From positions 13,653-77,652 of the forward strand of contig CAVQRU010000008.1 of the NCBI GenBank assembly GCA_963715285.1: a DNA stretch of 64,000 bases, given 5' to 3'. Position numbers and translations under genes: made by a program. Below are positions 4,422 to 52,321 of the stretch, one piece after another. Position 1 is the stretch's first letter; the number at the start of each line of letters is the position of its first letter. Source of the stretch: Ilumatobacteraceae bacterium (GTDB lineage Bacteria; Actinomycetota; Acidimicrobiia; Acidimicrobiales; Ilumatobacteraceae). Under the pieces are notes generated by a model that was not told where the DNA came from, ran no database searches, and worked only from the letters and a program-made list of their open reading frames with translations.

Positions 4422-5033
4422 ATGACCGCCGAATTCGGTGTCGGACGAGGCAAGGTGTTCCCGGCGTCGAAGGCGCGGTCGCTGCTCAACCCGGCACGGC
4501 GCCTCGTGCAGTCGCCCGGTCGTGTGGTCGACGCACTCGGCGTCGACGCGGACGCCGCCGTGCTCGAAGTCGGCTGCGGCCCTGGCTACTTCAGCCCGAC
4601 ACTCGCATCGGCGATCCCGGACGGCAGGGCGGTGTTGGGTGATCTCCAACCGGAGATGCTGCGTCTCGCTCGCGACCGGCTCGCCACGCACAGCAATGCT
4701 GACGTCGTGCAACTCGACGCGACCCGACTGCCGTTCGGTTCGGCGACGTTCGACGCCGTGCTCGTCGTGTTGATGCTCGGTGAAGTGCCGGACCGCGAGC
4801 GCTGCCTCGCCGAATGCCGGCGAGTGCTCCGGCCGGATGGCGTGGCACTGTTCGCCGAGAGCCGTCGCGACGGCGACTTCATCCGGCGTTCGGAGCTGTG
4901 CTCGATCGTCGAACCGCGCGGTTTCGAGCTCGACGAGGTCCGAGGTTGGTCGTTCGAGTACACCGCGCGCTTCCGGTGCGTACCCCTTGACGAGGCCCTG
5001 CCACCAGGACCGTTTCCAAGACCTACAAAATAA
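4422..5033 (+). CDS. class I SAM-dependent methyltransferase
   Basis: Internal ATG 4422 of ORF 3867-5033; the upstream 185 codons are Arg-rich and overlap 3907-4311. SAM motif I is VLEVGCGPGYFS, followed by DATRLPFGSATFDAVLVVLML and RVLRPDGVALF. Confidence 0.85.
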   Translation: MTAEFGVGRGKVFPASKARSLLNPARRLVQSPGRVVDALGVDADAAVLEVGCGPGYFSPTLASAIPDGRAVLGDLQPEMLRLARDRLATHSNADVVQLDATRLPFGSATFDAVLVVLMLGEVPDRERCLAECRRVLRPDGVALFAESRRDGDFIRRSELCSIVEPRGFELDEVRGWSFEYTARFRCVPLDEALPPGPFPRPTK

Positions 5034-5074
5034 TCCACTTTTAGTTGTAGGAATTGCAGTTCCGGTATTAGAGT
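5022..5074 (+). promoter_or_regulatory. predicted dabB promoter (-35 TTGTAG 5045-5050, -10 TAGAGT 5069-5074) overlapped by inverted repeat CCTACAA-N16-TTGTAGG
   Basis: The only strongly AT-rich stretch for kilobases. Hexamers are spaced 18 bp apart and ATG 5082 lies 7 nt after the -10. Inverted-repeat arms are at 5022-5028 and 5045-5051. Confidence 0.45.
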
Positions 5075-5081
5075 GCCGTCG

Positions 5082-6737
5082 ATGTCCGGAGTCCTGATCG
5101 CCGCTGTCGCCCTGCCACTCTTGATCGCTGTCGTCATCGCGCTGCTCCGCCTCCCGGTACGGCGTGCCGCCCCGGCGGCCGTCATCGCCAGCGCGGCGTC
5201 GTTCCTGGCGGCGCTGGCCGTGCTCGTCGCGACGGCCATCGACGGTCCGACGAGTGCGATCGTCACGGACGCCGACGGTCGCGTCGTCTTCGGACTCGCC
5301 GCCGATCGAGTGGGCGCCGTGCTGATCACACTCACGACGCTCGTCGGTCTGATCGTGCAGTCGTTCGCCTCGAGGTCGCTGCTCGGTGATCCACGAGCGC
5401 GCCGGTTCCACGTGCTCGCACTCGTGCTCACCGCCGCCACGGCCTCGGTGGCGGTCGCGGCAACGGGATCGGGCCTGGTGATCGCCTGGATCGCCACCAG
5501 CGTGGCCCTCGTCGCACTGATCGGCCACCGGGCTCCCTGGCCGCCCGCCGTCGCCGCGCAGCGCCGGACCGGACTCAGCTTCCTGATCGGCGACCTCGCC
5601 CTGCTCGTCGCAGTGCTCGCCACGATCGTCACCGTCGGCGACATCGACCTGCGAGCGGTCGCCGCCGACGCGTCGGCACTCGAGGCCGAACAGATCGTCG
5701 GCATCAACGCCCTCACGATCGTCGCCCTGCTGATGGTGATCGCAGGGGTTGCCCGCTCGGCGCTCGTTCCGATCCACCGCTGGCTGCCATCGACACTCGC
5801 CGCCCCGACGCCCGTGTCGGCGCTGCTCCACGCCGGTGTGGTCAACGGTGCGGGCGTGCTCCTCATCCGCTTCTCCCCGCTCTTCGGTGCATCGACCACG
5901 GCGATGACGCTCGCCTTCGTGCTCGGCATGGCCACCGCACTGATCGCCACCGCCGTGATGCTCGTGCGCACCGACGTCAAGGGCGGCCTCGTGTGGTCGA
6001 CGTCCGGACAGATGGGGTTCATGGTTCTGCAGCTCGGCGTCGGCGCCTTCGCCGCTGCCCTGTTCCACATCGTGGGTCACGCGCTCTACAAGGCGACGAT
6101 GTTCCTCGGCGCCGGCGGAGCCATCAGCGCACACCTGCGTCAAGGAACCCGTCCCCACCTCGGCGAGGCCGACGCGGCCACGCTGCGCTCGCCGACGGTG
6201 CGGGTGCTCGTCGGACTGGTCGTGCCGCTCGCAGCCTTCGCGCTCGCGCTGGCCGTCATCGATCCGCACCTCACGGCGGCGGCGACCATCCTGGTCGTCG
6301 TGTTCGGAACGCTCTCGATCGGCCGTGCAGCCAACGGCTGGTTGGGATCGACGCCGTTCACCGTGCGCAGGTCGGTCGTCACGGCGGTCGTCGGCGTGGC
6401 CGTCGGTGTGTTCGGCTATGTCGGCGGCCTCACGCTCTTCGAGAACTTCGTCGCCGACGTCGTGCCGTACGACGTGCCCGCCGCGGTCGGACCGGTGTGG
6501 GTCGCTGCATCGCTCGCGGCGATCGCCCTCGCCATCGCAGTGATCGTGTTCGCCCCCGGCCGTGGAGGTGACAACCTGCGTCGCGCGACCTACGTGTGGC
6601 TGTTCGCCACGGGCACCGCCACACCGACCTCACCGGCGGCCGCCCGCCGAGTGCGCACACGCTCCGCGGCCCTGCCCGCACACGGCCTCAACAGGTCCGA
6701 ATCACCCGCTCCCGTCACGGTTGGAGAACCCGCATGA
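5082..6737 (+). CDS. dabB: DabB: NuoL/MrpA-like proton-conducting membrane subunit of a DAB inorganic-carbon pump
   Basis: Polytopic protein with Proton_antipo_M motifs WLPSTLAAPTPVSALLHAGVVNGAGV, VWSTSGQMGFMVLQLG and FHIVGHALYKATMFLGAG. There are no other nuo/mrp genes in the window. The stop overlaps the dabA start (ATGA). The ORF opens at GTG 5073; ATG 5082 is preferred from promoter geometry. Confidence 0.85.
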   Translation: MSGVLIAAVALPLLIAVVIALLRLPVRRAAPAAVIASAASFLAALAVLVATAIDGPTSAIVTDADGRVVFGLAADRVGAVLITLTTLVGLIVQSFASRSLLGDPRARRFHVLALVLTAATASVAVAATGSGLVIAWIATSVALVALIGHRAPWPPAVAAQRRTGLSFLIGDLALLVAVLATIVTVGDIDLRAVAADASALEAEQIVGINALTIVALLMVIAGVARSALVPIHRWLPSTLAAPTPVSALLHAGVVNGAGVLLIRFSPLFGASTTAMTLAFVLGMATALIATAVMLVRTDVKGGLVWSTSGQMGFMVLQLGVGAFAAALFHIVGHALYKATMFLGAGGAISAHLRQGTRPHLGEADAATLRSPTVRVLVGLVVPLAAFALALAVIDPHLTAAATILVVVFGTLSIGRAANGWLGSTPFTVRRSVVTAVVGVAVGVFGYVGGLTLFENFVADVVPYDVPAAVGPVWVAASLAAIALAIAVIVFAPGRGGDNLRRATYVWLFATGTATPTSPAAARRVRTRSAALPAHGLNRSESPAPVTVGEPA

Positions 6738-9339
6738 CCACCTCGACACGAACCGCCAGCATCGACCGCAGCGTCCTGGTCGCCGACGTCGCCCGCGCCG
6801 GAGCCTTCGTCGCGCCCTACTGGCCGCTGACCTCGTTCGTGGCGGTCAATCCGCTCGGTGGCCTGCAGGACAAGCCGTTCGACGAAGCGACCGCGCTCGC
6901 CGGTCGATGGTTCGGGGCCCGCACCCACCTCGCGCTCGACGCGTATCGAGCCGAGTACGCCAGCGGCGCGATCAGCGACGTCGACCTCGACCGGTCGATC
7001 CACCGTCGACTGTCGTGGGTCGCCGATGCGCCCCCGATCGAGCTCGGAAACGTTCGTTTCGACGTGATCGACGTCATCCGCTGGGACCTGGTCCACGGGC
7101 CGGTCGACGCATCGGTTGACGCATCGTTTGACGCATCGTTGACGCGACATCGCCCACACTCGCCGATGCGCTCGACGACGTCGTCACGGCATGGTGTTCG
7201 ACCTACGTCGACGACGCCCACGTCCCGTGGGCGATGCCCGACCGCTCGCTCGGCTTCTACCGGTCGTGGCGGGCGCTCGCTCCTGCCGACCGTCGCCTGA
7301 CCGGACTGATCGGACGCGACGGAAGAGAGCGGCTCGCGTCGCTGCCCGACGATCCGGTCGAGATGCTCGATCTCGCGCTCACCAGCCGCGGCGTGGGCGA
7401 CGAGGGACGAGTCGCCGCGATCCGGACGCTCCTGCTGCGGACCCCGGGCTGGGCCGGCTTCGCGCGCTGGTGCGACGACTGGGCCCCCGCCGATCGCGAG
7501 GGGGTCCGACTCCGCATGCTCGACCTCGCGGCCGTACGTGCCGCAGTCGATCACGTCGCCCCGGAGCATCTCGACCTGCGCCAGACCGACGCGCCGACCG
7601 CGACGGTCACCGCACGAGTCGAGGCGGCGACCTCCGCGTTCGCCCTCTCCGCGCCCTCCGTGGCCGACCGCGAGACGATCGCGGCGGTGCTCCGCAAGGT
7701 CTCGGAGGCCGATCGGGCGGCGATCTGGCTCGCCGCCCACGAGTGGAACTTCCGCAACCGCCTCCTCGCCCGGCTCGACGGACCGAGCAGCCCGGGCCGG
7801 CAGACCCAGGCGCAACGACCCGATGCACAGTTGGTCTTCTGCATCGATGTCCGGTCGGAGGGCTTCCGGCGGCACCTGGAATCGCTCGGCCACTACGAGA
7901 CCTACGGGTTCGCCGGGTTCTTCGGTGTCCCCGTTCGGTGGCGGCCGCTCGGATCACCCGTTGCCCAGGCGCGCTGTCCCGTGCTGGTGTCACCTCGACA
8001 CGAGGTCGTCGAAGTCGCCGTCGACGACGACCACGCCTACCTTGCCTCGTGCTCCGCGAGCGCCGGTCTCCACGACGCGTTCTACGCCGCCAAGGGCGGC
8101 ATCGCCTCACCGTTCGCGCTCGCCGAGTCGGCGGGTTGGTTCGCCGGTCCCGTGGCCGCGGTCCGCACGTTGCTGCCGGGGCGTGCCGTCACGGCACCGG
8201 CCGAGGCCAAGACGCCGTGGTGGAAGCGGTTCTCGTCGATGCCACGAACCGGACCGGCCGTCGACGCCGAGGTCGGCGAACCACTCCGTTCCGGCCTGAC
8301 GTTGGAGGAGCGCACGCTGTTCGCCGAGGCGATCGTCACCACGATCGGCATGGCGGAGTTCGCTCCGATCGTGGTGCTGTGCGGCCACGGGAGCGACACC
8401 GCCAACAACCCGCACGCGTCGTCGCTCGACTGTGGCGCATGCGGCGGAGCCCCCGGCGGCGCGAGCGCACGGATCGCCGTCGCGATCCTCAACGACGCCG
8501 ACGTGCGCGCCGGGCTGGCCGAGCGCGGGATCGAGATCCCCGACGACACCTGGTTCGTCGCCGCCGAACACGACACCACCGCCGACGTGGTCACCATCTT
8601 CGATCGCGACGCCATCCCGGCGCAGTCGCTCGCCGGGGTCGATGCGCTCCAGCGTGATCTCGACGTCGCCGGCGAGCGCAACTCGCACGATCGTGCCGCC
8701 CGGCTGCCGGGCAACCCCGATCGCGTGCGCGATCGAGGTCGCGACTGGGCGCAGGTGCGACCCGAATGGGGGCTTGCCGGCAACGCCGCCTTCGTCATCG
8801 GCCCACGTTCGATCACCGCGGAGCACGACCTCGCCGGCCGTTGTTTCCTGCACAGCTACGTCGCCGAGCGCGATCCCGACGGGGTGGCGCTCGAGACGAT
8901 CATGACCGCCCCGCTCGTCGTCGCGCAGTGGATCTCGGCGCAGTACTACTTCTCGACGGTCGATCCCGAGGTGTTCGGCGCCGGCGACAAGATGCTGCAC
9001 AACCCCGTGGGTGGTGTCGGCGTCGTCGTCGGCCAGTCCGGCGACCTCGCCGTCGGGCTCCCGATGCAGTCGGTGATGCTCGGCGACCAACGAGCCCACG
9101 ATCCGCTGCGCCTCCTCGCCGTGGTGCAGGCGCCACTCGACCGCGTCGAGGGCATCATCGTGCGCAACAGCGGGTTGCGCCAGCTCGTCGAAGGTGAATG
9201 GATCCACGTGGTCGCCCGCGAGAGCGAGCACGATGCATGGTCGTTCCGCACCCCGAGCGGCGGCTGGGAACCCTGGACCGCCACCGACGTCCACGCCGCT
9301 GCGGCGGCACCCCTGCTCACCACACTGGAGACCTCATGA
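6734..9339 (+). pseudogene. dabA: DabA (DUF2309, carbonic-anhydrase-like subunit of the DAB pump); frame interrupted at about 7139-7141
   Basis: The N-terminal part is in frame 2 (ATG 6734, WPLTSFVAVNPLGGLQ...). The homology continues without a gap in frame 1 from 7141 (DATSPTLADALDDVVTAWCSTYVDDAHVPWAMPDRSLGFYRSWR...) to TGA 9337-9339. Zn-ligand blocks FCIDVRSE and CGHGS..NNPHASSLDCGACGG are present. The track shows the two pieces as ORFs 6596-7300 and 7234-9339. This could instead be a sequencing error in the repeat. Confidence 0.8.
7103..7149 (+). repeat. 12-bp tandem repeat (GTCGACGCATCG / GTTGACGCATCG / TTTGACGCATCG / -TTGACGCgaca) at the dabA frame break
   Basis: Read directly. Three in-frame units encode VDAS VDAS FDAS, and the fourth unit lacks one base. 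Confidence 0.9.
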
Positions 9340-9662
9340 CCACCTGGACCAACCTCACCGCGATGGCGAAGATCGAAGTCGTCGTCGACGGCGACGACGT
9401 GCCCGCGGTCCGCGACCTGTTCCTCGACGCCGGCGCGACCGGCTACACCGCGGTGTCGGGGGTGTCCGGCTTCGGGCACCACGGCCACCACCAGGGCAAG
9501 CTGCTGTTCAACGATCGCGCCAGCCTGTCGATGCTGATCACGGTGGTCCCGTTGGAGCGTTCCGACGCACTGATCGCGGGCATTCGCCGGTTCCTCGACG
9601 ACCGCCACGGTGTGCTGTTCGTCTCCGAGACCCACGTCAGCAGGCCCGACTACTTCGCCTGA
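9336..9662 (+). CDS. PII-like signal-transduction protein (CPII-type, associated with the DAB transporter)
   Basis: ATG 9336 overlaps the dabA stop (ATGA). The 108-aa protein has KIEVVV..AVRDLFLDAGATGYT, a T-loop-like GFGHHGHHQGKLLFND, then MLITVVP..ALIAGIRRFL, matching PII size and secondary-structure pattern. Confidence 0.7.
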   Translation: MTTWTNLTAMAKIEVVVDGDDVPAVRDLFLDAGATGYTAVSGVSGFGHHGHHQGKLLFNDRASLSMLITVVPLERSDALIAGIRRFLDDRHGVLFVSETHVSRPDYFA

Positions 9663-9734: not shown

Positions 9735-10190
9735 ATGGAGCCTGCAGTGCACACGATCATCGACACCGACGCCGTCAACCCGGTGCTCAACGAGATCCTC
9801 AAGGCGGAGCTGTCCGGGGTCGTCCGCTACACCCACTACTCGCTCGTCATCACCGGCCCGAACCGTCTGCCGCTGGTCGACTTCATGAAGGCGCAGGCCG
9901 CAGAATCGCTGTTGCATGCTCAACAGGCCGGCGAGATCCTCACCGGCCTCGGCGGTCACCCCGAGCAGGGAATCGCCCCGATCGAGGAGTCGCACGATCA
10001 CACCATCGAGGCCATCCTGAGAGAATCGGTCGGGCACGAGCGCCGCGCTCTCGACCTGTACCGCCAGCTGTTGCATCTCGCCGAGGGAGCGTCGATCTAC
10101 CTCGAGGAGTACGCCCGTGGCCAGATCGGCCAGGAGGAGCTGCACGTGATCGAGATGAACAAGCTGCTGCGCGACTACTCGATCGACTGA
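9735..10190 (+). CDS. ferritin-like / bacterioferritin-family protein
   Basis: Bacterioferritin-like N-terminus NPVLNEILKAELSGVVRYTHYS and paired carboxylate/His motifs (AAESLLHA; GQEELHV; GHERRALDLY). ATG 9735 was chosen inside ORF 9687-10190. Confidence 0.7.
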   Translation: MEPAVHTIIDTDAVNPVLNEILKAELSGVVRYTHYSLVITGPNRLPLVDFMKAQAAESLLHAQQAGEILTGLGGHPEQGIAPIEESHDHTIEAILRESVGHERRALDLYRQLLHLAEGASIYLEEYARGQIGQEELHVIEMNKLLRDYSID

Positions 10191-10212: not shown

Positions 10213-10545
10213 ATGGTGTCGACAAGTGGAGGCCCGGAGGTCGGGCTGTGCACCGGCAAGGACTGCCGCAGTGCCGGTGGGTTCCGGACCGTCGAGCGTG
10301 AGCTGCGCCGGGACTGCACGGTGCTCCCGCTGCCGTGCCTGGACGTGTGCGATGGGGTGGTCGTGGTGCTCGAGCCTCGGTCGCCGAAGGCGACGGTGCT
10401 CGAACGTATCGGGGGCAAGGGCTTGGCGTTGGAGATCGTCGACCACGTGGTGGCCGGCGAACCGTTGTCGGCTCGATTGCGCAAGCGGCGGCTCTCCGGC
10501 ACGAAGCAGGCCAAGGCCCGCAGGAGGGTCGAGCGCGCGCTCTGA
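10213..10545 (+). CDS. putative thioredoxin-like [2Fe-2S] ferredoxin-domain protein
   Basis: 110 aa with Cys-x4-Cys (CTGKDC) and Cys-x3-Cys (CLDVC) spacing and a basic C-terminal tail. No clear SD. Confidence 0.45.
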   Translation: MVSTSGGPEVGLCTGKDCRSAGGFRTVERELRRDCTVLPLPCLDVCDGVVVVLEPRSPKATVLERIGGKGLALEIVDHVVAGEPLSARLRKRRLSGTKQAKARRRVERAL

Positions 10546-12832: not shown

Positions 12833-12867
12833 GCGGGACAACACGGGTCAGACCCGTGTTGTCCCGC
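12833..12867. repeat. perfect 17-1-17 palindrome GCGGGACAACACGGGTC-A-GACCCGTGTTGTCCCGC (GGGTCAGACCC-centred family)
   Basis: Read directly. Lies between the ACAD stop and the PhyH start. Confidence 0.9.
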
Positions 12868-12873
12868 TCGACG

Positions 12874-16136: not shown

Positions 16137-16814
16137 ATGTCCCGGCCTGCTCCTGCGAACGTCGCCGTCGTGCGGATCAGCACCACCAGCGGCTCGGTGC
16201 GTGTCACCGCGGAGCCCGGACGGACGGACGTGTCGTCGAGCAGTACCCCCGTGTCGTCGGTCGACGAGTCGGTGACCATCGATGGCGGGAACTCCAAGGT
16301 CGACGTGCGTGTCCCGGAGGGAACCGACCTCGTGATCGGCACGATCTCCGGCAAGGTGACCGTCGACGGCAGGGTCGGCGCCGTCTCTGCGCTCACGACG
16401 TCGGGCCGGATCTCCATCGATCACGCCGCATCGGTCGATGCCCGCTCGACCAGCGGACAGGTGGAGGTCACCCACGCCGACGGCGAGTGCCGCGTGATGT
16501 CGACGAGCGGAAGGGTGCAGGTCGGTCGCTGCGGCGCAGCGGATGCTTCGAGCGGGAGCGGTCGGATCGTGCTGGCCGATGCACACGGACCCGTGCGAGC
16601 CAACTGCACGAGCGGCAGGATCACCGTCTCGATGGCCGGTGCCCACGACGTCGACGCCGAGACGGTGGCCGGTCGGATCGACGTCTCGCTCCCGTCCGGC
16701 GTGCGACCCCTCGTCGTGTCGTCGGCCGCGGCTGCCGCCGAGGCGGGGCAGGAGCACGACTGCAACGTCATCGCCCGGTCGGGGACCGGTCGGGTCGTCG
16801 TCTCGAATCGATGA
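16137..16814 (+). CDS. DUF4097-type (LiaG/YvlB-like, beta-helical 'putative adhesin') protein
   Basis: Repeated SG-x-[IV]-x-[IV] rungs (TSGSVRVTA, ISGKVTVDG, TSGRISIDH, TSGQVEVTH, TSGRVQVGR, GSGRIVLAD, TSGRITVSM, VAGRIDVSL). ATG 16137 has GGAGGAG 13 nt upstream. The ORF opens at 16056. Confidence 0.65.
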   Translation: MSRPAPANVAVVRISTTSGSVRVTAEPGRTDVSSSSTPVSSVDESVTIDGGNSKVDVRVPEGTDLVIGTISGKVTVDGRVGAVSALTTSGRISIDHAASVDARSTSGQVEVTHADGECRVMSTSGRVQVGRCGAADASSGSGRIVLADAHGPVRANCTSGRITVSMAGAHDVDAETVAGRIDVSLPSGVRPLVVSSAAAAAEAGQEHDCNVIARSGTGRVVVSNR

Positions 16815-17341
16815 CCGACCCCCTCGCTCCGGAGTCGATGGACACCATCTTGTTCACCGACCTCGTGGGGTTCACCGAGTACACCGACGCGTGCGGCGAC
16901 GCCGCCGCGGTCTCCGTCCTCGACCAGCAGTCGACGATCGCCCGTGATGCCCTCGCCGACGGTCGCGGGCGCCTCGTGAAGGAGATCGGCGACGGGCTCA
17001 TGTTCTGGTTCCGGCACCCGGACGACGCGCTTCGTGCTGCCGTCTCCGTACTCGGCGCCGTCGAGGCCGCACGCGAGCACCGAGGCTTCCCGTTGGGGAT
17101 CCGCATGGGCATGCACAGCGGCGAGGTGACCGCCCGCGGCGACGACTTCGTCGGCCAGACGGTGAACATCGCCTCGCGCGTGTCCGACCTCGCGGGTCCG
17201 GGAGAACTCGTGGTCTCGGAGGCCGTGGTCGGCTCGGTCGGGTCGGCGCACGGGCGGTTCGAGCCGGTCGGGCCCGCGAGGGTGAAGGGCGTCGCCGAGC
17301 CGATCTGGCTGCACCGACTCGTCCCGGACCGCGCCCGTTGA
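16811..17341 (+). CDS. minimal class III adenylate/guanylate cyclase (catalytic domain only, 176 aa)
   Basis: ILFTDLVGFT (metal Asp), VKEIGDGLMFWF (Lys plus second Asp), GMHSGEV and GQTVNIASRV. The ATG overlaps the upstream stop (ATGA). Confidence 0.85.
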   Translation: MTDPLAPESMDTILFTDLVGFTEYTDACGDAAAVSVLDQQSTIARDALADGRGRLVKEIGDGLMFWFRHPDDALRAAVSVLGAVEAAREHRGFPLGIRMGMHSGEVTARGDDFVGQTVNIASRVSDLAGPGELVVSEAVVGSVGSAHGRFEPVGPARVKGVAEPIWLHRLVPDRAR

Positions 17342-18285
17342 AGCAGACTGCGCCGATGAACCGCCGCCGCAGCATCGTCGTCGACACCGACACGGCGTCC
17401 GACGACGCGATTGCGCTCCTGTTGGCCGTGCGAGAGCCTTCGATCGACGTTCGGGCGGTCACGGTCGTGGCCGGCAACGTGCCGCTCGACCTCGCCGTGC
17501 GCAACGCGATCGTGACGCTCGACCTCTGCGGCGGCGCCGACATTCCGCTCCACGCCGGGCGGGCGGAGCCGTTGTCGCGGCCGCTGAACACCGCGCAGTT
17601 CGTGCACGGCGCCGACGGAATGGGGGGAGCGGCACTGCCCGAGCCCGCTCGCATCGCCACCTCGCACGACGCCGTGGCGGCCCTGCTGCAGATCGCCACG
17701 GACGAGCCGGGGCAGCACGATCTGGTCACCCTCGGCCCGCTGACCAACATCGCCGCGGCGTTGGAGGTCGATCCCGAGTTCCTGACGAGGTTCGGCCACA
17801 CCTATCTGATGGCGGGATCCCCCGACGGCGTCGGCAACGTCGATGCCCTCGGTGAGTACAACGTGTGGGCCGACCCCGAGGCCGCGACGGCGGTGTTCGC
17901 TGCGGCCGGCGAGAAGACGATGATCGGTTGGAACATCTCGCGCACGTTCGCCGTGCTCGACCACGACGAGCAGGCCCGGTTGGCCGCGGTCGGCCCGTTG
18001 GGCCGGTTCGCGATCGACATCAACGGCGACGTCGACCAGTACGCGATCGACACCGGTCTCGCAGGATTCGATCTCCCCGACCCGGTCGCGATGGCGGTGG
18101 CACTCGATCCGTCGATCGTGACCGAGGCGACCGACGAGTGGCTGGTGGTCGGGCTCGACGGCCCGACGCGCGGCTGCACGATCCCCGACCGTCGCTTCGG
18201 CCGTCCCGCCCCGACCATCCGGGTGGTCTGGGCCGTCGACGAGGCCGCCTTCAAGTCACGCCTCTTCGCCGCCTGCCGCTCCTGA
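17338..18285 (+). CDS. inosine/uridine-preferring nucleoside hydrolase family protein
   Basis: N-terminal DTDTASDDAIALLLA fingerprint. TTG 17338 overlaps the cyclase stop; an alternative ATG is at 17356. Confidence 0.9.
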   Translation: MKQTAPMNRRRSIVVDTDTASDDAIALLLAVREPSIDVRAVTVVAGNVPLDLAVRNAIVTLDLCGGADIPLHAGRAEPLSRPLNTAQFVHGADGMGGAALPEPARIATSHDAVAALLQIATDEPGQHDLVTLGPLTNIAAALEVDPEFLTRFGHTYLMAGSPDGVGNVDALGEYNVWADPEAATAVFAAAGEKTMIGWNISRTFAVLDHDEQARLAAVGPLGRFAIDINGDVDQYAIDTGLAGFDLPDPVAMAVALDPSIVTEATDEWLVVGLDGPTRGCTIPDRRFGRPAPTIRVVWAVDEAAFKSRLFAACRS

Positions 18286-30156: not shown

Positions 30157-32964
30157 TCAGGTGGCTTCGAGAGGAAGATCGAAGTGTCGGAGTTCTGCCT
30201 CGTGCGCGACCGCTTGGAGTTCTCGGGGAGTCATGGCCGCCGCGCGGGCCCGTAGTTCGTGGAGGTGTTCCGGCCCGAGCTGGGCATCGAGCCAGGGATC
30301 GAGTTCGACGAGGGGCCGCGCCAGGAACCATCCGAAGTACTCCTGCGGATACCTCGCCCGGATCGTGGCCGCGGCGTCCGCCTCGCCGAGGGTCCGAAGG
30401 ATGATCGCGTGGAGCTGTAGTCCGCCGTGCACGGAGTTTCGATCGGAGTATCGGTGGGACAGGTCGATGAGTTCGTCGGTCAGCCGGATCGCTGCCTCGA
30501 GATGGCCCCGCCGATGTTCGGCCGTGGCGACGAGTTGGAGGGCAGCGAGCCAGTCCGAGGATCCCACGACCCGCATGTCGAGCAATGAGCGAGCCTCTGT
30601 CAGCATGAGTTCGTAGTCGGCCTCGATGTACGCGACGAGCGCCGCACCCCAGTGGGCCTCGGCGCGAAGGACCTCCGACGGGTGTCGACGAGCTTCCTCG
30701 ATGCGCGTCGTCCAATCGTCGATGATCTCCTCGTGGCGGCCGGCGAACGCATGGCGCGTGTACATGATGAGCGTGAGGAAGAGGGCACGGGTCGGGTCGA
30801 ATCCATCTCGTGTCGCAAGGCGAGACATCGTCCACTCGACGGCGAGATCCTCGTACCCGATCGTGTTCAGGAGAAAGATGACGGGGCGGCAGAGCGAACT
30901 CGGAAGGAGGTCGTAGCCACCGGCCGCGTCGACCGCGCGCCGGGCGATACGTTGGATCTCCTCGTACTCGCCGTTCCGGATGTGATCGATGCCGTGGAGT
31001 GTGAGCAGGTGGGGCAGGTACGCCGACGAGTCGGCGTCGGGCAGCGTCAAGGCCTCGGCCGCCCACCCGTTGATCGGCCAGTCGATCACGTGAAAGACCT
31101 CTGAAACGGGAGCAATCAGTTGAGCGGCGGCATCGACATCACCGACGCTGAGCGCATGCTCGAACGTGCGCCGCACGTTCGGGATCTCGAGGTTGAGGCG
31201 GTCGGCGGCGGACTTGATCGAGTGTGTTCTCATGTCGTCGACCAGCGTCTGCATCATCCGGACATGGTGAGCATGCAATGAGCGCATCGTCGTGATGGTG
31301 TCGCCCGATTCGTCGAAGCGATCCTCGGCGTAGCTGCGGATCGTCTCCAGGTAGCGATAGCGGCGGACACCGTCGACGTTGTCGACCGTGAGCAACGACT
31401 TGTCGGCGAGCGCGGCGAGCACATCGAGCACCTCGACGTCGGAGCGGCCGTCGAGCACCGCCATGGCGCTGCTCAAATCGAAGCTGGCGGCGAACACCGA
31501 GAGCCGCGCGAAGGCGTCGCGGTCGTCGGCGTCGAGGAGTTCGTAGCTCCAGTCGACGGTCGTGCGCAACGTCCTCTGTCGGTCGCTCGAGCGGCGCCGG
31601 CGGCCGCCTGTGAGCACGTCGAACCGAGCGGTGAGCCGCTCGAGCAGCTCAGTCGGGGTGAGCATCGATATTCGTGCGGCCGCCAACTCGATCGCCAGCG
31701 GCAACCCGTCGACCCGTCGGCAGATCTCGAGCACGACGCCGAGGTCGTCGGATCCGAACTCGACCGAGTCGTCGCGCGCCCTGACCCGTTCGCAGAACAG
31801 TTCGACGGCCGGAGCGGTGACGTCGTTCGTGCCGAGTCCGGGCACGACGACGATGTGTTCGCCGGCGACGCCGAGCCCTTCGCGACTGGTCGCGAGGATC
31901 CGGCAGTTGGGGGAGACCTGCAGAAGTTGTTCGGCGACTTCTGCGGTGGCTTCGACGACGTGCTCGCAGTTGTCGACGACGATGAGCACGCGCCGGTGCG
32001 ACACGGCCATCGCCACGGCATCCATCGTCGGTGACGACAACCGCAGCGCCTGTGAGAACGCGGGGAGAACGTTGTCCTCGCCGGTCACCTTGTCGAGCCC
32101 GACGAAGACGGTGAGATCGAAGCGGTCCGAGATCCGCTCGGCGACCGTGAGCGCCGCGCTGGTCTTGCCGATGCCGCCCGGGCCGAGGAGTGTGACGAGT
32201 CGCTCGTCGTGCATCGCTGCCTCGACGGCGGCGAGAACGTCGTCGCGCCCGACCAGCGCGGTCAGCATCGTCGGCAGTGCCGATGGCTGATGATCGACCC
32301 GCAACGGAGGGTACTGGTCGCGCCCGAACTGAAAGATGCGCTCCGGGCTGGCGAGGCCCTTCAACGCGTGCTCACCGAGATCGGCCACGTCGGCGGTGAC
32401 ACCATCGTCGCCGATCAACCCGAGCGTCACCGCCGACATGAGGATCTGTCCGCCGTGCCCCGCGTCGGCGATGCGGGCGCAACGGTTGACCGTCGGCCCG
32501 TACAAGTCGCCGTCGCGCTCGATCACCTCGCCGGTGTGGAGCCCGATGCGCACCGGGAGCTCGAGCGCATCTTGCGCCTCGCGGGCAGCATCGAGCGCCT
32601 GTGCCGCAGACCAGAACACGACACCCATACCGTCGCCGGTGTGCTTGAACACACGCCCACCGTGCGCCTCGATGACGCGTTGGATGGTCCGGTCGTGGTC
32701 GGCCAACGCGGCCTCCATCGAAACCGCATCCTCACGCCACCGCCCCATGGACCCCTCGATGTCGGTGAACAGAATCGTCACGGTCGCCCCCGCCGGCAGA
32801 CCGGGAACCGGGACGACAGCGCCTGACTGCCCGCCGAGGTCACCCGGAAGCCACGCCGCCTCATCCTGGCCGCGCCCGAAGGTCGACAGGTCCGGATCGC
32901 TGTCCGAGGCCGCGAGCAGCTCGGCCTCGAGTGCTCGCAGCAGCGAACTCGCGTCGGGCCCCAT
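30157..32964 (-). CDS. class III nucleotide cyclase fused to a STAND/AAA ATPase and a helical-repeat (TPR-like) region (935 aa)
   Basis: Cyclase motifs ILFTDIEGSM, FKHTGDGMGVVF, GLHTGEV and GPTVNRCARI. Walker A GPGGIGKTS, Walker B-like VLIVVDNCEHV, then a long alpha-helical C-terminal region. Confidence 0.85.
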   Translation of the reverse strand: MGPDASSLLRALEAELLAASDSDPDLSTFGRGQDEAAWLPGDLGGQSGAVVPVPGLPAGATVTILFTDIEGSMGRWREDAVSMEAALADHDRTIQRVIEAHGGRVFKHTGDGMGVVFWSAAQALDAAREAQDALELPVRIGLHTGEVIERDGDLYGPTVNRCARIADAGHGGQILMSAVTLGLIGDDGVTADVADLGEHALKGLASPERIFQFGRDQYPPLRVDHQPSALPTMLTALVGRDDVLAAVEAAMHDERLVTLLGPGGIGKTSAALTVAERISDRFDLTVFVGLDKVTGEDNVLPAFSQALRLSSPTMDAVAMAVSHRRVLIVVDNCEHVVEATAEVAEQLLQVSPNCRILATSREGLGVAGEHIVVVPGLGTNDVTAPAVELFCERVRARDDSVEFGSDDLGVVLEICRRVDGLPLAIELAAARISMLTPTELLERLTARFDVLTGGRRRRSSDRQRTLRTTVDWSYELLDADDRDAFARLSVFAASFDLSSAMAVLDGRSDVEVLDVLAALADKSLLTVDNVDGVRRYRYLETIRSYAEDRFDESGDTITTMRSLHAHHVRMMQTLVDDMRTHSIKSAADRLNLEIPNVRRTFEHALSVGDVDAAAQLIAPVSEVFHVIDWPINGWAAEALTLPDADSSAYLPHLLTLHGIDHIRNGEYEEIQRIARRAVDAAGGYDLLPSSLCRPVIFLLNTIGYEDLAVEWTMSRLATRDGFDPTRALFLTLIMYTRHAFAGRHEEIIDDWTTRIEEARRHPSEVLRAEAHWGAALVAYIEADYELMLTEARSLLDMRVVGSSDWLAALQLVATAEHRRGHLEAAIRLTDELIDLSHRYSDRNSVHGGLQLHAIILRTLGEADAAATIRARYPQEYFGWFLARPLVELDPWLDAQLGPEHLHELRARAAAMTPRELQAVAHEAELRHFDLPLEAT

Positions 32965-33084
32965 GTCGTCACCCTAGGTGACGCAGAACAGACGCCTCGG
33001 CGGGGATCCTCGGTCAACCCTCGAACCGAGCCGCATCGGGTTCGTCAGCGGCGAGTACCCATGGATCTCACCGTCGAGCTGAAC

Positions 33085-33888
33085 TCACCGCCGGGTGACG
33101 GCGGCGAACGTGACCGCAGCGGCCTGCGCGACGTTGAGCGAGTCGACGTCGGGCTCGATCGGGATGCGAACGCGGCGATCAGCGGCGGCGATCACCGCGC
33201 GGCTCAGGCCCGGGCCCTCCGCGCCGAGGCACACTGCCACGCGATCGGGAACGGTGACGCTCCACAGGTCGACCGACCCTGGCGAAGGCGTCATCGCCCA
33301 GGTCTCGAAGCCGGCCTCACCGAGCTGATCGAGCACCGTCGACCACGCCTCGACGCGAGCGATCGGCAACGTCAGGACTTCGCCCATGCTGACGCGCACG
33401 GTTCGGCGACTGTACGGATCCGTGCAGGTGGGATCGATCACGAGTCCATCGATCCCGAAGGCGCGAGCGGCCCGAGCGATCGCACCGAGATTCTCGGCGT
33501 CGTTGAGGCCTTCGAGCACGGCGAGCCGTCTCGTAGTGGCGGTCACGTCGGAGAGCGACGCCGGCGGCCGTCGTGTCGCACTGGCGATCACACCACGGTG
33601 CAGGTCGAAGCCGACCACCTCGGCGATCACGTCGCGGTCGGCGACGTACACCGGCACACCGAGCGCAGCGAGCGCTGCGGTGTTGGCAGCGAAGCGTTCG
33701 ACGCGCGACGGAGCAAGCAGCACCGATCGCACGGCATGGCCCGACTCGATCAGTCGGTCGATCGCCACGTACCCCTCGACGATGAACGACTCATCGCCCT
33801 CGTAGCGTCGCCGGTACCCCTGGTCGTTCAGCGAGCGGTAGTCGGCGAGCCGCGGATCGTCGGCTCGCTCGACCGGTGTGGTGGTCAA
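33085..33888 (-). CDS. TrmH/SpoU-family RNA 2'-O-methyltransferase
   Basis: [30 protein letters not shown] and [21 protein letters not shown] start overlaps the upstream stop. Confidence 0.85.
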
Positions 33889-34325
33889 CGGGCGAACACC
33901 TGCGTGTCGTCGGCGAAGGCCTTGAACTCGAGCGCGTTGCCCGAGGGATCGAGCAGGAACATCGTCGACTGTTCACCGACCTGCCCGGCGAAGCGGGTGT
34001 GCGGCTCGATCACGAACGGCGTCGCCGCCTCGACCAACCGGGCGGCGAGCGCCGTCCAGTCGTCGGGTGTGAGCAGCACGCCGAAGTGCGGGACCGGGAC
34101 GTCGTCGCCGTCGACCGGATTCGACAGGGTCGAGGGTCGGTGGGTCGGGTCGAGGTGGGCGACGAACTGGTGGCCGTACAGGTCGAAGTCGACCCAGGTG
34201 TCGCTCGAACGACCCTCGGGACAACCGAGCAGCTCGCCGTAGAACGAGCGGGCGGCGGCGAGGTCGTGTACCGGCATCGCCAGGTGGAAGCGGGGTCGAT
34301 CGTGCCCTGTCATGTTCGGTGTCAT
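33885..34325 (-). CDS. VOC/glyoxalase-family protein
   Basis: [22 protein letters not shown]...HFGVLL...[14 protein letters not shown]. The start is ATG 34325 or 34313. Confidence 0.75.
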
Positions 34326-40185: not shown

Positions 40186-40500
40186 TCAACGCCACTTGGT
40201 GGCGGTCCAGAGCCCACCGAGGATGCACACGAGCCCGATCAGCGTCGGAATGTTGCTGTCGGTGAAGACCAGGTAGCGCGCCATGATCATCAGGCCGCCG
40301 ATGATCAACAGCGCCAGCATGATGATCGGAATCCAGTGCGGCGGGATCAACTCGCGTTTGGTCGCCTTGGGCGTGTAGCGCGACGACGCCGCCACGGCGT
40401 GGTGCGGTTCGTCGGACGAGGCCTGGGTGTGCCGGTCCTCGGGCCGGGTCCCCTTGGGGGTCACCCGGCCACCGCCGGTCTTTCGCTTCGGGGGAGCCAT
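40186..40500 (-). CDS. crgA: cell-division protein CrgA
   Basis: MAPPKRKTGGGRVTPKG..SSRYTPK, two TMs (WIPIIMLALLIIGGLMIMARY; LIGLVCILGGLWTATKW), and conserved position next to pabA/pknB. Confidence 0.85.
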   Translation of the reverse strand: MAPPKRKTGGGRVTPKGTRPEDRHTQASSDEPHHAVAASSRYTPKATKRELIPPHWIPIIMLALLIIGGLMIMARYLVFTDSNIPTLIGLVCILGGLWTATKWR

Positions 40501-40581
40501 GCAGGGTGGAGCATACGTGATCGGACGGGGAGAGCGTTCACGGGCGTCGCTGGTCGCTCGTGGCGAATCGACGTCACCGCG

Positions 40582-41199
40582 ATGCGGTGGGCGGCCCATA
40601 CTGGTGCGGTGCCGCGTGTCCTCGTGATCGACAGCTATGACAGCTTCGTGTACAACCTCGTCCAGTATCTCGGCGAACTCGGTGCGGAGCCGGTCGTCGT
40701 CCGCAACGACCAGGTGACGGTGGCTGATGCCGTGGCGATGGAGCCCGACGCCGTGCTGTTGTCGCCGGGCCCCGGACGACCCGAGACGAGCGGCATCATC
40801 TGCGATGCGATCGGATCGTTCGCCTCGATCGGCACACCGGTGTTCGGCGTCTGCCTGGGTCACCAGGCGATCGGTCACGTGTACGGCGCCGCCGTGGTCG
40901 GTGCGCCCGAGTTGATGCACGGCAAGACATCGGAGATCCTGCACGACGGCACGGGCGTGTTCGCCGGTCTCCCGTCGCCGTTGACCGCCACCCGATACCA
41001 CTCGTTGACCCTCGAGCCGTCGAGCATTCCCGACGAGTTGGCCGTCACGGCGCGTAGCGCCGACGGCGTCGTGATGGGTGTGCGTCATCGCACCCTCGAC
41101 GTGGAGGGTGTCCAGTTCCACCCCGAGAGCATCCTGACGGGCCACGGTCACGACCTGCTCGCCAACTTCCTCGCTCGCGCCGCCCCGGTTGCATCCTGA
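40582..41199 (+). CDS. pabA: aminodeoxychorismate/anthranilate synthase component II (glutamine amidotransferase)
   Basis: LVIDSYDSFVYNLVQYL, catalytic GVCLGHQ and VQFHPES. The start is ATG 40582 or GTG 40609. The pabA versus trpG assignment is ambiguous. Confidence 0.9.
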   Translation: MRWAAHTGAVPRVLVIDSYDSFVYNLVQYLGELGAEPVVVRNDQVTVADAVAMEPDAVLLSPGPGRPETSGIICDAIGSFASIGTPVFGVCLGHQAIGHVYGAAVVGAPELMHGKTSEILHDGTGVFAGLPSPLTATRYHSLTLEPSSIPDELAVTARSADGVVMGVRHRTLDVEGVQFHPESILTGHGHDLLANFLARAAPVAS

Positions 41200-41202
41200 C
41201 GG

Positions 41203-41220
41203 CCCCGCCGATCGGCGGGG
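41203..41220. terminator. short GC hairpin between convergent pabA and pknB
   Basis: CCCCGCC-gatc-GGCGGGG. Confidence 0.4.
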
Positions 41221-43338
41221 TCAGGGGATCGTCGTCGTGGTCGGGATGATCGTCGTCGTGGTCGGGACGGTCGTGGTCGTGGTCGTCGTGGGAGGGATCG
41301 TCGTGGTCACGGGCGCGACCGCCTTGCCGACGGTGATGGTGATGGCGGTGCCGGGATCGGCCTGCGAGCCCGCGGGCAGGCTCTGTGCGATCACGCGACC
41401 GTCGTCGGGGCTGCCGGCGGCGACGTCGACGAACGCGACGTTGGGCACCAGCCCCTGCTCGGTCAGCGTGTTGGTCGCCTGAGCCTGCGTCCGCCCGACC
41501 ACGGCGGGCACCGTGATCGGCTCGGGCCCGTTCGAGACGATGATCAGGACGTCGCTGCCCTTCAGCACGAACTCGCCGGGCCCCGGGCGGACCTCCATCA
41601 CGGTGCCTGCCGACACGGTGGAGCTCGACCGGACATCGGTGGTCACCACGAACTCGTACGGCGGCCCGCTCAGGACATCACGCGCCTCGACCTCGTCCAT
41701 CCCGATCACTTCGCCGGGAACCTGGACACTGGCAGGAGGTGCAGCGACGACCAGGTTGACCGTGGTGCCCTGGAGCGCAGGCGTCCCGGCTGCCGGGTCG
41801 CTCGAGATCACGGTGTTCTCCGCGAGGTCGTCGCGCTCCTGTTGGATGATCTCGCCGACGACGAAGCCGTCGGCGGCCAAGCGCTCGCTGGCTTCGGCAA
41901 AGGGGAGCGCGACCACGTTGGGGACCGGGACCAGCTGCGGATCGGGGTTGAAGAAGATCTCGACCACCTGGTCCTTGAGGATCAGTGTGCCGGCGACCGG
42001 ATCGGTCCTCACCACGAAGTTGACCGCGACAAGGGAACTCTCCTCCGGCGTCGTGACGAATCGGATGTCCTTGGCGGTCAGATCGGCCGTCACCTCTTCG
42101 AGCGGGCGGTTGGTGTAGTCGTCGAGCACGAACTGTGTCGGCTCGGCCTCGCCCTCGTCGCCGCTCAGCGCCTGGAAGAGCAGGACGCCGCCGACCACGA
42201 GCAGGATCAGCGCGAGGAACGCGCCCAGTGCGTACCAACCCGTTCGCGACGGGTTGGTGTCGTAGTACATCGCGTCGGCGGATGCACCGGTGGGGTAGCC
42301 GGCTTCGACCATGCCGGTCGACGGGACCGAGGCCGCCCGAGGCGCACCCGCGGGGAGACTGCCGGTCGGTGCAATGGTGGGGTTGACCGTGGTGGCGCCT
42401 GCCACTGCGGCACCCGCGACTGCAGCACCTGCCACGGTGGCTGCACCAGCCGCGGCTCGCCCCTGCGCGTTGGCTGCGGCGGCGAGCGCCTGGACCGGTT
42501 CGTCGTTGCGGAAGCGGCGCAGGTCGTCGCGCAGGGCCGCGGCGCTCGGATAGCGCAGCTTGGGGTCCTTGGCGAGCAGCTTGGCGACGATTGCCTCGAA
42601 CGACCGTGGGACGTCGGCGACGATCTGCACGAGCGGTTGCGGTGCGTCATGGACCTGCTTGTACGCGATGCTCACCGGGTTCTCACCGGTGAACGGCGGC
42701 CGACCGGCGACCATCTCGTACATCACGATGCCGAGGGAGTAGAGGTCGCTGCGAGGGTCGGGCTGGGCCCCTTGGGCCTGTTCGGGCGAGAAGTACGTCG
42801 CGGTGCCCATCACCGAGCCGACCTGGGTGAGGTTCGACTCGGTCGGTGCGTTGAGTGCCCGAGCGATGCCGAAGTCGGCCACCTTCACCTGGCCGTTCGT
42901 ACCGATCAGGATGTTGGCGGGTTTGATGTCGCGGTGCGCGACGTGGTTGTCGTGCGCGAACCCGAGCGCAGCGGCGACCTCGCTCGCGATCTCCGCTGCC
43001 TGCTTCGACGTGAGCTGCTTGTTGGTGGTGAGGATCTCCGCCAACGTGCGGCCCTGCACCTCCTCCATCACGATGAAGTAGGTCCCCTCGTACTTGCCCC
43101 AGTCGTACACGTTGACGATGTTCGGGTGCGACAGGCTGGCCGCGGACTGTGCTTCTCGGCGGAACCGCTCGACGAAGTTGGCATCGGTGGCGAACTCGGG
43201 GAAGAGGACCTTGACGGCGACCTGGCGGTCGAGCAGGAGGTCGCGCGCGGAGAACACGTCGGCCATGCCGCCGCGCCCGATCCGTTTGTGGATCTCGTAA
43301 CGGTCGTTGATGACCGTCGCCTCGCCGTTGTTCGTCAC
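41221..43338 (-). CDS. pknB: Ser/Thr protein kinase PknB with four PASTA domains
   Basis: GRGGMADVF, VAVKVL, HRDIKPANIL, DFGIAR, one TM, four PASTA-like repeats and a poly-Thr tail. GTG 43338 has GAAGG 7 nt upstream. Confidence 0.95.
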   Translation of the reverse strand: MTNNGEATVINDRYEIHKRIGRGGMADVFSARDLLLDRQVAVKVLFPEFATDANFVERFRREAQSAASLSHPNIVNVYDWGKYEGTYFIVMEEVQGRTLAEILTTNKQLTSKQAAEIASEVAAALGFAHDNHVAHRDIKPANILIGTNGQVKVADFGIARALNAPTESNLTQVGSVMGTATYFSPEQAQGAQPDPRSDLYSLGIVMYEMVAGRPPFTGENPVSIAYKQVHDAPQPLVQIVADVPRSFEAIVAKLLAKDPKLRYPSAAALRDDLRRFRNDEPVQALAAAANAQGRAAAGAATVAGAAVAGAAVAGATTVNPTIAPTGSLPAGAPRAASVPSTGMVEAGYPTGASADAMYYDTNPSRTGWYALGAFLALILLVVGGVLLFQALSGDEGEAEPTQFVLDDYTNRPLEEVTADLTAKDIRFVTTPEESSLVAVNFVVRTDPVAGTLILKDQVVEIFFNPDPQLVPVPNVVALPFAEASERLAADGFVVGEIIQQERDDLAENTVISSDPAAGTPALQGTTVNLVVAAPPASVQVPGEVIGMDEVEARDVLSGPPYEFVVTTDVRSSSTVSAGTVMEVRPGPGEFVLKGSDVLIIVSNGPEPITVPAVVGRTQAQATNTLTEQGLVPNVAFVDVAAGSPDDGRVIAQSLPAGSQADPGTAITITVGKAVAPVTTTIPPTTTTTTTVPTTTTIIPTTTTIP

Positions 43339-43432
43339 GATGTGCCTTCTGCGCCGGAACTCCGGTTGACGGCGCTGGGCAAGGTTACCGAGCAGGTGTG
43401 GTGCATTCTCGGCAGTGTCGCCGGGTCCGGGT

Positions 43433-45007: not shown

Positions 45008-45008
45008 G

Positions 45009-46448: not shown

Positions 46449-46455
46449 GGCGGCG

Positions 46456-47928: not shown

Positions 47929-48458
47929 CACTGGGCCTCGATCACGGTGGTGCCGACCTGGATTCGATCGCCGGGGTGGAGCAGTCTGGAGCCGACGAGT
48001 TTCGAGCCGTTGTGGAACGTGCCGTTGGTCGACCCGAGATCCTCCACCATCGGCTGGCCCTCGTAGTCGTAGATGCGCAGATGGAGTTGTGAGACGTACG
48101 CGTCGTCGTCGATCGTGATCGTGCACCCCGGCTCACGGCCGAGCGTGATGTCGCCGTCGAGTGCCACGGTCATGCCGCGTCGTACTTTCGGCTCCAGGAT
48201 CACGAGCCGACTGGCGCGGCGCTTGGCCTGCTGCTTGGCGTGTTTGGACTGTTTGCGACCGACCGGCGCCGGCGCGACGGGCCGGGGCGTGGGCGTGGTG
48301 GTGTGCGGCCGTCGCGGCGCTCCGCCCGGAGCACCGGCCATCGGCCGCCTCACCGGGGTGCGGACCTCGCTCCACACCGCCCAGAGCACGCGCGCGAAGA
48401 AGAGATAGAGCAGTCCCAGGAGGACGAACTTGAGAATGTTGAGGACTTGATCGGTCAT
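47928..48458 (-). CDS. fhaB: FHA-domain protein FhaB/FipA
   Basis: N-terminal TM and C-terminal FHA (ITLGREPGCTI...SQLHLRI...DLGSTNGTFHNG). Confidence 0.85.
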   Translation of the reverse strand: MTDQVLNILKFVLLGLLYLFFARVLWAVWSEVRTPVRRPMAGAPGGAPRRPHTTTPTPRPVAPAPVGRKQSKHAKQQAKRRASRLVILEPKVRRGMTVALDGDITLGREPGCTITIDDDAYVSQLHLRIYDYEGQPMVEDLGSTNGTFHNGSKLVGSRLLHPGDRIQVGTTVIEAQ

Positions 48459-48485
48459 GGGACGAGGAGCTCGTGCTCCGTGCGG

Positions 48486-49148: not shown

Positions 49149-49234
49149 AGGTGGAGTGCGAGGCTACTGCCCACCGTCGGGCCACCGTCGTCGCATCCCT
49201 CCGTGCGATCACGACGCGCCCCCTCCCCCCACAA

Positions 49235-49277
49235 CCGATGAGCGAGTCCCCCACAGTCTGGGCCTTGCCTCATCGCT
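49235..49277. repeat. REP-like hairpin element, GCGATGAGCGA family
   Basis: CCGATGAGCGAGTCCCCCACAGTCTGGGCCTTGCCTCATCGCT. Confidence 0.8.
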
Positions 49278-49305
49278 CGGTGGTTTCTTCCCGCGTCCAC
49301 CCAGT

Positions 49306-52310: not shown

Positions 52311-52321
52311 AGGTACCCGGT

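Follow-up and report, generated by a model that had tools for sequence, protein, structure and literature searches.

The 64,000-nucleotide window analyzed here, from contig CAVQRU010000008.1 of an Ilumatobacteraceae bacterium, very probably holds a two-component inorganic carbon (Ci) uptake operon of the DAB (DAC/MpsAB) type, in which dabB and dabA are followed by a gene for a CPII-type PII protein and the three genes form one unit, with dabA interrupted in this copy and intact in sister strains. A first-pass annotation of this DNA, made from the sequence, had assigned the three products to DabB, DabA, and a PII-like protein, and Pfam bore these identities out. DabB matched PF00361 (E 1.4e-35), and the 108-amino-acid (aa) open reading frame (ORF) downstream of dabA matched PF00543 (E 8.6e-19). 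Both pieces of dabA matched PF10070 (DUF2309), the 5' piece, which carries YWPLTSFVAVNPL, over profile positions 1-71 (E 9.7e-16, 57.8 bits) and the 3' piece over positions 129-747 (E 1.3e-210, 702 bits). Every peptide motif quoted in the annotation was present in the translations, and NCBIfam returned no above-cutoff family for DabA or PII. No dabC-like small ORF was found within the operon or next to it, where the neighboring genes encode a methyltransferase and a ferritin-like protein; the system is therefore of the two-component (DAB2/MpsAB) type and not of the DAB1 subtype. DAB1 (DabABC) of Halothiobacillus neapolitanus and Thermocrinis albus has the same DabA/DabB chemistry but needs the small membrane subunit DabC, which is not encoded here. 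A P-II gene is likewise present in the DAB1 region of H. neapolitanus (10.1101/476713).

A pump function for this DabAB is predicted from its sequence and by analogy with solved complexes. The closest comparison is DAB2 of H. neapolitanus (PDB 9RD0, 9RD8, and 9RD9; Desmarais et al. 2019; Lo et al. 2026), which like the window system has two components and no DabC. The 3' part of DabA aligned with DabA2 (9RD0_A) over approximately 700 residues at 39% identity (E 2.5e-115, HMMER alignment). The DabA2 zinc ligands C351, D353, H524, and C539 are identical in window DabA (Cys 7840-7842, Asp 7846-7848, His 8386-8388, and Cys 8431-8433) and invariant in a three-way alignment, so that the Cys/Asp/His/Cys ligands proposed in the first pass held up against the Halothiobacillus protein. 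The finger/elbow-motif Glu, E444 of DabA2, is likewise kept (codon 8125-8127) and aligns as ESAG in both proteins; in DabA2, this residue is essential and completes the proton path (PMC13144422). For DabB, the best solved relative was DabB2 (9RD0_B; E 1.6e-38, residues 5-439), a protein of the same length (551 aa). Nine of the 11 DabB2 residues that impair activity when mutated, all proton-path or ion-pair residues, are identical in window DabB, namely S246, H250, K300, S306, H329, H333, K337, D171, and I137 (DabB2 S256, H260, K310, S316, H339, H343, K347, D185, and I151). The window departs from DAB2 in having dabB before dabA with 4-nucleotide (nt) overlaps and a PII gene attached, in its actinobacterial host, in the lack of visible CO2-fixation genes, and in its frameshifted dabA.

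The layout of the operon is compact (Table 1). Although GTG 5073 is an alternative start for dabB, ATG 5082 is the one kept in relatives. Both ATGA stop/start overlaps that had been noted earlier are present, between dabB and dabA at 6734-6737 and between dabA and the PII gene at 9336-9339, each with a GGAG 5 to 8 nt ahead (6723-6726 and 9327-9330, respectively), and gene calls on orthologous contigs share these 4-nt overlaps. The fixed stoichiometry that had been read from these overlaps is an inference that was overstated. An identical DabB protein is encoded on JGI contigs L089 and L090, and an identical PII protein is encoded on L008.

Table 1. Features of the dabB-dabA-PII operon, in window coordinates
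Feature	Position	Strand	Description
dabB	5082..6737	+	NuoL/MrpA-like membrane subunit, 551 aa, polytopic; ATG 5082 to TGA 6737; PF00361
dabA 5' part	6734..7141	+	~136 true-frame codons, then out of frame to stop 7298-7300
dabA 3' part	7132..9339	+	735 open codons; homology from ~7141; beta-carbonic anhydrase-like active site
CPII-type PII-like gene	9336..9662	+	108 aa; start overlaps dabA stop; PF00543
12-nt tandem repeat in dabA	7101..7145	+	(V/F)DAS units; frameshift site; TRF
Promoter-like AT-rich element	5045..5074	+	TTGTAG-N18-TAGAGT; read directly from the sequence

As written, dabA occupies two frames, frame 2 at 6734-7300 and frame 1 at 7132-9339, both in the ORF listing and in a three-frame translation. 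The "about 868-codon reading frame" of the first-pass annotation, which mentioned a frame-repaired DabA only among its proposed checks, is thus split at a hypervariable 12-nt tandem repeat. The repeat (TRF period 12, 3.8 copies) reads GACGCATCGGTT / GACGCATCGTTT / GACGCATCGTT / GACGCGACATCG, its third unit being 11 nt long, and an 868-aa DabA is obtained only with one base inserted near 7139, giving a repaired protein that reads ...VDASVDASFDASxDATSPTLADAL... across the junction. Three metagenomic contigs (L089, L090, and L008) are 99.3 to 99.9% identical to the window and cover parts of the region. The two that span the repeat, L089 and L008 (99.3% identical), keep the reading frame with two repeat units, relative to which the window dabA carries a net 11 nt more; the break is therefore private to the window sequence. 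DabA is also uninterrupted in the orthologues L002, L003, L006, and L007, and orthologues at 86 to 90% nucleotide identity encode an intact 857-aa protein. Because of the frameshift, the copy as written cannot make full-length DabA, and the functional, translationally coupled pump proposed at first does not apply to it, although apart from the break dabA is undamaged. The 701-aa truncated DabA product is on record in no assembly, and a 548-aa variant of DabB is likewise unrecorded.

Comparison with the sister contigs leads us to favor, by a modest degree, a genuine slipped-strand mutation of the strain over an assembly error. Alternatively, the true sequence may hold three full 12-nt units (an in-frame gain of 12 nt), with one base lost in a short T/G run during sequencing or assembly and the operon intact and functional, a substantial possibility that we place somewhat short of an even chance. 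The site lies in a tandem repeat beside a TT/TTT run, the remainder of dabA is sound (735 open codons, all key residues kept), relatives have the intact 857-aa DabA, and related contigs from metagenome-assembled genomes (MAGs) bear obvious indel damage (L009, L012, L013, and the "fusion" of L001), all as expected of an artifact. Yet not one stray single-base indel was found elsewhere in approximately 11.7 kb of nonredundant comparison between the window and the three sister contigs, which are of Illumina type, and this is unlike a noisy assembly; moreover, the junction k-mer CATCGTTGACGCG occurs in neither sister allele. The other indels that separate the window from its sisters are intergenic and consist of complete repeat units, at 3712 (26 nt more in L089) and 11025 (8 nt more in L008); judging from these sequences, indels in this population appear to arise mainly by repeat slippage. 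Should the frameshift nonetheless be an assembly error, the statement that dabA is broken in this strain would fall. Programmed frameshifting was considered and rejected, as orthologues and the 99%-identical sister contigs are plainly in frame and no conserved slippery site is present. As a side possibility, the 12-nt repeat might mutate so readily that part of the population has its pump switched off.

Two further observations concern the dabB-dabA junction in other loci. The 1,412-aa "DabB-DabA fusion" of L001 (L001:7365-7480) results from a single-base insertion 47 nt before a retained ATGA and, for that reason, may be an assembly error. Stop-to-stop ORFs also run across dabB and dabA in three other Acidimicrobiales loci (L011, L014, and L046), one of them in a short-read assembly, consistent with the reports of genuine fusions in Acidimicrobium.

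Several features of the DNA upstream of dabB suggest that the three genes are expressed from one promoter. The approximately 60 nt ahead of the gene (5020-5081) form an AT-rich island in a genome of approximately 68% G+C (65 to 71% in the window). Within it, the element TTGTAG-N18-TAGAGT ends 7 nt before ATG 5082, with no Shine-Dalgarno sequence, and the same island holds a 7-nt inverted repeat, CCTACAA-N16-TTGTAGG, and a 14-nt imperfect palindrome, GGAATTGCAGTTCC. The segment GTTGTAGGAATTnnAGTTCCGGTATTAGAGT is almost invariant in L001 to L003, L009, and L010, down to 75% protein identity, and the DNA upstream of it diverges. This conservation suggests that the AT-rich element is a promoter, possibly a regulated one, and that the dabB mRNA is leaderless or has a very short leader. 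A search for inverted repeats or hairpins after the PII gene gave nothing useful, and the Rfam scan of the window returned one tRNA and no riboswitch. On this sequence evidence, dabB, dabA, and the PII gene appear to be expressed as one unit.

The 108-aa protein is of the CPII type and not a canonical GlnB/GlnK protein, as judged by both sequence and predicted structure. Its best PDB match was CPII of Thiomonas intermedia K12 (5D4N; E 5.5e-17, 101 of 108 residues, approximately 37% identity), a protein of the same length that is also represented by 5D4L, 5D4O, 5D4P, 5DRK, and 5DS7. An AlphaFold2 model (mean predicted local distance difference test score, 82.6) has a beta-alpha-beta-beta-alpha-beta core and a disordered, low-confidence T-loop. 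In a Foldseek search of the PDB, the 14 best matches to this model were all CPII chains (TM score, 0.78 to 0.84), followed by TTHA0516 and then by SbtB and GlnK, the last two at 13 to 18% identity. The PII fold claimed in the first pass is thus confirmed by profile, sequence, and predicted fold. CPII was reportedly described by Wheatley et al. in 2016 as a carboxysome-associated PII protein. Like the window protein, it has DAB-type (NdhF-like plus DUF2309) genes as neighbors and a T-loop of the type G-x-G-x-H-G-x-x-x-G...FN(D/E), and neither protein has the GDGKIF B-loop of GlnB. In the window protein the GlnB-type signature T-G-x-x-G-D-G-K-I-F is absent, the B-loop region being DDRHGVLFVSE and the T-loop GFGHHGHHQGK, and Pfam scans detected no amtB or glnA in the 64 kb. 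The two proteins differ in that CPII belongs to a carboxysome locus, of which there is none here, and in that the window T-loop is richer in His (GHHGHHQG versus GSHGMYEG). That richness had been taken as a peculiarity of this protein. The aligned PII proteins of DAB loci, however, share the motif SGxGHHG(H/F/Y)H(Q/E)G..FND, and because the motif is family-wide, the His-rich loop is not special to this locus.

Taken together, these comparisons suggest how the system would work. Homology to the solved DAB2 and DAB1 complexes predicts that CO2 is hydrated at a zinc site buried in DabA, that protons run down the membrane potential through DabB and render the hydration one-way, and that bicarbonate builds up in the cytoplasm as a result. 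In the solved systems, access to the buried active site is gated by protons that flow through DabB and the DabA finger, and the irreversible hydration of CO2 that follows lets bicarbonate accumulate (PMC13144422; 10.64898/2026.05.01.722082). In a nonautotroph, the bicarbonate would presumably supply biotin carboxylases, a role already proposed for MpsAB and for the DABs of heterotrophs. The PII trimer would most likely sense the adenylate state and bicarbonate, and its conserved T-loop may dock on the pump to block or release it, by analogy with CPII and with SbtB-SbtA; both ligand binding (ADP/AMP and bicarbonate) and the trimeric state are predicted from CPII, for which ADP/AMP binding enhanced by bicarbonate is cited in 10.1101/762807 and PMC9974498. 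All three proteins would be made from a single transcript started at the AT-rich promoter just before the dabB ATG, with the two downstream starts coupled by ATGA and GGAG, and sister strains of the same population carry an intact dabA.

Several points weigh against this interpretation. Two of the DabB2 residues mentioned above differ in window DabB (K235 to R225 and R182 to L168); no DAB-PII complex or interaction has been reported for any DAB; the solved DabAB, a 1:1 heterodimer, offers a PII trimer no obvious three-fold or symmetric partner; an assembly error could account for the frameshift; and no promoter or terminator was called by the consensus scans, which passed over the AT-rich element, for which reason the transcription unit is inferred.

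The nature of the coupling ion is a separate matter. MpsAB of Staphylococcus aureus (Fan et al. 2019, 2021) has the same gene order as the window (mpsA, the dabB counterpart, comes first) and is a stand-alone operon in a nonautotroph, where it presumably supplies bicarbonate at atmospheric CO2; it differs in belonging to another phylum, in having no PII gene described beside it, and in its proposed Na+ coupling. The window complex could, by extension, be a Na+/bicarbonate cotransporter of the kind proposed for MpsAB rather than a proton-driven vectorial CO2 hydratase. The shared gene order and the lack of dabC would fit, as would the sodium coupling put forward for MpsAB (PMC13144422; PMC8552792), the saline-type metagenomes from which relatives derive, and the V/A-type ATPase operon that some of them carry beside dabB. 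We nevertheless consider sodium coupling improbable. The beta-carbonic anhydrase-like zinc ligands and the DabB2 proton-path His, Lys, and Ser residues are kept, DAB2 works without sodium (PMC13144422), and the ATPase neighbor is absent from the window and therefore is not a conserved link.

The role of the PII protein can likewise be read in more than one way. SbtB-SbtA of cyanobacteria, in which a PII-like gene beside a Ci uptake system gates that system by adenine nucleotides, is our working analogy for a PII protein that throttles DabAB. The analogy has limits: SbtB is remote from window PII (Foldseek identity, 13 to 17%), window PII is without a C-terminal redox R-loop, and the partner of SbtB, the Na+/HCO3- symporter SbtA, is a trimer, unlike the heterodimeric DabAB. 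Alternatively, window PII may leave the pump alone and pass a bicarbonate/adenylate signal to another target, such as biotin carboxylase or the biotin carboxyl carrier protein, the latter being bound by canonical PII proteins (cited in PMC5579400). The nontrimeric DabAB and the lack of any reported DAB-PII complex would agree with such a target. Against it, the PII gene lies immediately 3' of dabA, often overlapping it, in 18 loci of distant phyla whose flanking genes are not conserved, and in both SbtB-SbtA and GlnK-AmtB the PII protein is encoded beside the transporter that it gates, so that we regard an unrelated target as unlikely. If regulation of the pump is accepted, the 1:1 heterodimeric make-up of DabAB would demand a new mode of action from the trimeric PII protein. 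A bolder proposal, which we offer tentatively and consider doubtful as it stands, is that CPII-type PII proteins are a cross-phylum, dedicated feedback governor of two-component DABs in nonautotrophs, docking through the T-loop (SGxGHHGxH(Q/E)G..FND) and either bridging up to three pumps or binding one asymmetrically. The first-pass annotation had said that PII gating of a DAB pump has not been worked out, and the literature searched indeed yielded no mechanism for it; according to a 2021 review, control of Ci uptake by a regulator protein is documented for SbtA only.

The frequency of the arrangement was estimated by scanning species-representative genomes with a DabA alignment. At least 597 relatives were confirmed among 600 pattern matches, the best 80, from many phyla, were kept, and six-frame ORFs of these 80 DabA loci were searched with window PII, CPII, and DabB. 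Loci were evaluable if they had a PII gene (18) or, lacking one, at least 600 nt of downstream sequence (59). In 18 of the 77 evaluable loci, representing at least four phyla, dabA was followed directly by a CPII-like ORF in the same orientation, and dabB was directly upstream of dabA in nearly all of the best 80. The PII-bearing loci comprise all 10 actinobacterial loci together with a Legionella MAG, Rhodothermales, Vulcanimicrobiota, two Proteobacteria MAGs, a Sphingomonadales MAG, Salinivenus, and the cultured isolate Novosphingobium piscinae KCTC 42194. From these sequences, the conserved module is dabB-dabA-PII. A different operon layout was seen in Nitrospira, Nitrospina, and Nitrospirales loci (L021, L025, L043, and L077), where a DabB-like gene lies approximately 4 kb downstream of dabA.

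Other candidates for membership in the module were rejected. The ferritin-like gene at 9735-10190 and the 110-aa Cys-rich ORF behind it are conserved within Ilumatobacteraceae but not in more distant actinobacterial loci, and the upstream S-adenosylmethionine methyltransferase gene is absent in L002 and L003. Neither Pfam nor NCBIfam matched the 110-aa ORF (10213-10545), whose cysteines are spaced C-x4-C ... C-x3-C and which in Ilumatobacteraceae relatives invariably comes after the ferritin-like gene.

The arrangement is not special, and the locus is one more example of it, albeit a damaged one. This is an ordinary three-gene operon. Heterotrophic and actinobacterial DABs, among them DabA:DabB fusions of Acidimicrobium, were already reported in 2018-2019 (10.1101/476713), and CPII itself was known. 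The "clean model" for PII control that the first-pass annotation saw in it does not survive the occurrence of the same arrangement in 18 of 77 evaluable loci, a cultured Novosphingobium among them. With an uncultured host, a broken dabA, and the same module available in cultured bacteria, the locus is not the best place to study PII-DAB control. The question that the annotation raised is real, even though this locus is not a privileged model for it. DAB pumps are structurally understood and considered for carbon-uptake engineering, and the matter at issue is how they are switched off to spare the membrane potential. Since a CPII-like gene with a conserved T-loop follows dabA in approximately a quarter of the sampled loci, in several mostly nonautotrophic phyla, PII control of DABs becomes a general question and not a carboxysome-specific one, and the survey points to cultured hosts in which it could be tested.

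The host is an uncultured, marine-type, Ilumatobacteraceae-like member of the Acidimicrobiia, and the locus is chromosomal. The nearest DabA loci, among the best 80 of at least 597 relatives, are those of Ilumatobacteraceae MAGs at 75 to 78% amino acid identity, and PII homologues bear Ilumatobacter or Acidimicrobiia-type names. Pfam scans of approximately 60 ORFs across the window detected no RuBisCO, phosphoribulokinase, carboxysome shell (BMC, CsoS), carbonic anhydrase, or further nuo/mrp gene; six-frame ORFs of the window gave no second PF00361-like or PII-like product, and a PROSITE-type RuBisCO active-site pattern was not found in it. These scans agree with the first-pass statement that the window has no CO2-fixation, carbonic anhydrase, or other nuo/mrp gene. 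The conclusion drawn from it, that the organism is a heterotroph, is plausible but asks too much of 64 kb; autotrophy through the reversed oxidative tricarboxylic acid (roTCA) cycle exists in the class (PMC11697166).

The organism might fix CO2 through Calvin-Benson-Bassham (CBB) or roTCA genes elsewhere in its genome, with the DAB serving autotrophy, as a CO2-concentrating or Ci supply device, rather than anaplerosis. Form I RuBisCO is encoded in some Acidimicrobiia MAGs, and carbon fixation by roTCA is known from one isolate (PMC11697166); of the present genome, only 64 kb is visible. We hold this to be unlikely all the same, given that CBB genes are sparse across 168 Acidimicrobiia genomes (PMC11697166). 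The RuBisCO signature is absent from the window and from within 6 to 10 kb of any of 88 related DAB loci, and the window content is typical of heterotroph housekeeping and fatty acid metabolism. Cultured Ilumatobacter species, moreover, are heterotrophs. The genes of the window include those for ABC/FtsX transporters, a methyltransferase, a ferritin-like protein, an F420H2-dependent quinone reductase, PhyH, acyl coenzyme A (acyl-CoA) dehydrogenase, thiolase, ABC exporters, MMPL, a cyclase-STAND protein, aminotransferase, acyl-CoA synthetase, LacZ, and SPFH/NfeD.

The DNA flanking the operon varies among relatives. In L001:1-4034, L002:95-2896, and L003:1-5109, which are 86 to 90% identical, a V/A-type ATPase operon (A, F, c-ring, and I subunits) is found upstream of dabB in divergent orientation; ABC/FtsX transporter genes and a DUF7144 gene hold this position in the window and in L089. 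The ATPase was rejected as an energy-coupling partner of the pump, as it is present in L001 to L003 and absent from the window, L089, and L090, where ABC/FtsX genes are found. Downstream, L001 to L005 have a WhiB-like gene and an HTH_17/B12-binding (LitR/CarH-like) regulator gene between the PhyH and acyl-CoA dehydrogenase genes, and this 1.4-kb segment (L001:13494-14929) is missing from the window at 12855-12868.

Farther from the operon, a division and signaling cluster conserved in actinobacteria, at 40186-49490, comprises crgA, pknB (four PASTA domains), pbpA, rodA/ftsW, a PP2C phosphatase gene, fhaB, and fhaA, and is followed by a tRNA-Leu(CAG) at 49407-49490; crgA-pknB-type division clusters are usually found near oriC. 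A 935-aa protein encoded at 30157-32964 (-) combines an adenylate/guanylate cyclase domain with an NB-ARC/STAND NTPase. Three long open frames of 458 to 495 codons, at 16768-18255 (-), 32827-34242 (+), and 51123-52499 (-), have coding-like G+C content at third codon positions and no Pfam match. Inside the first of these, a frame of 495 codons, ARAGORN placed a 94-nt tRNA-Pro(CGG) at 17184-17277, a doubtful call that Rfam did not report at its gathering threshold.

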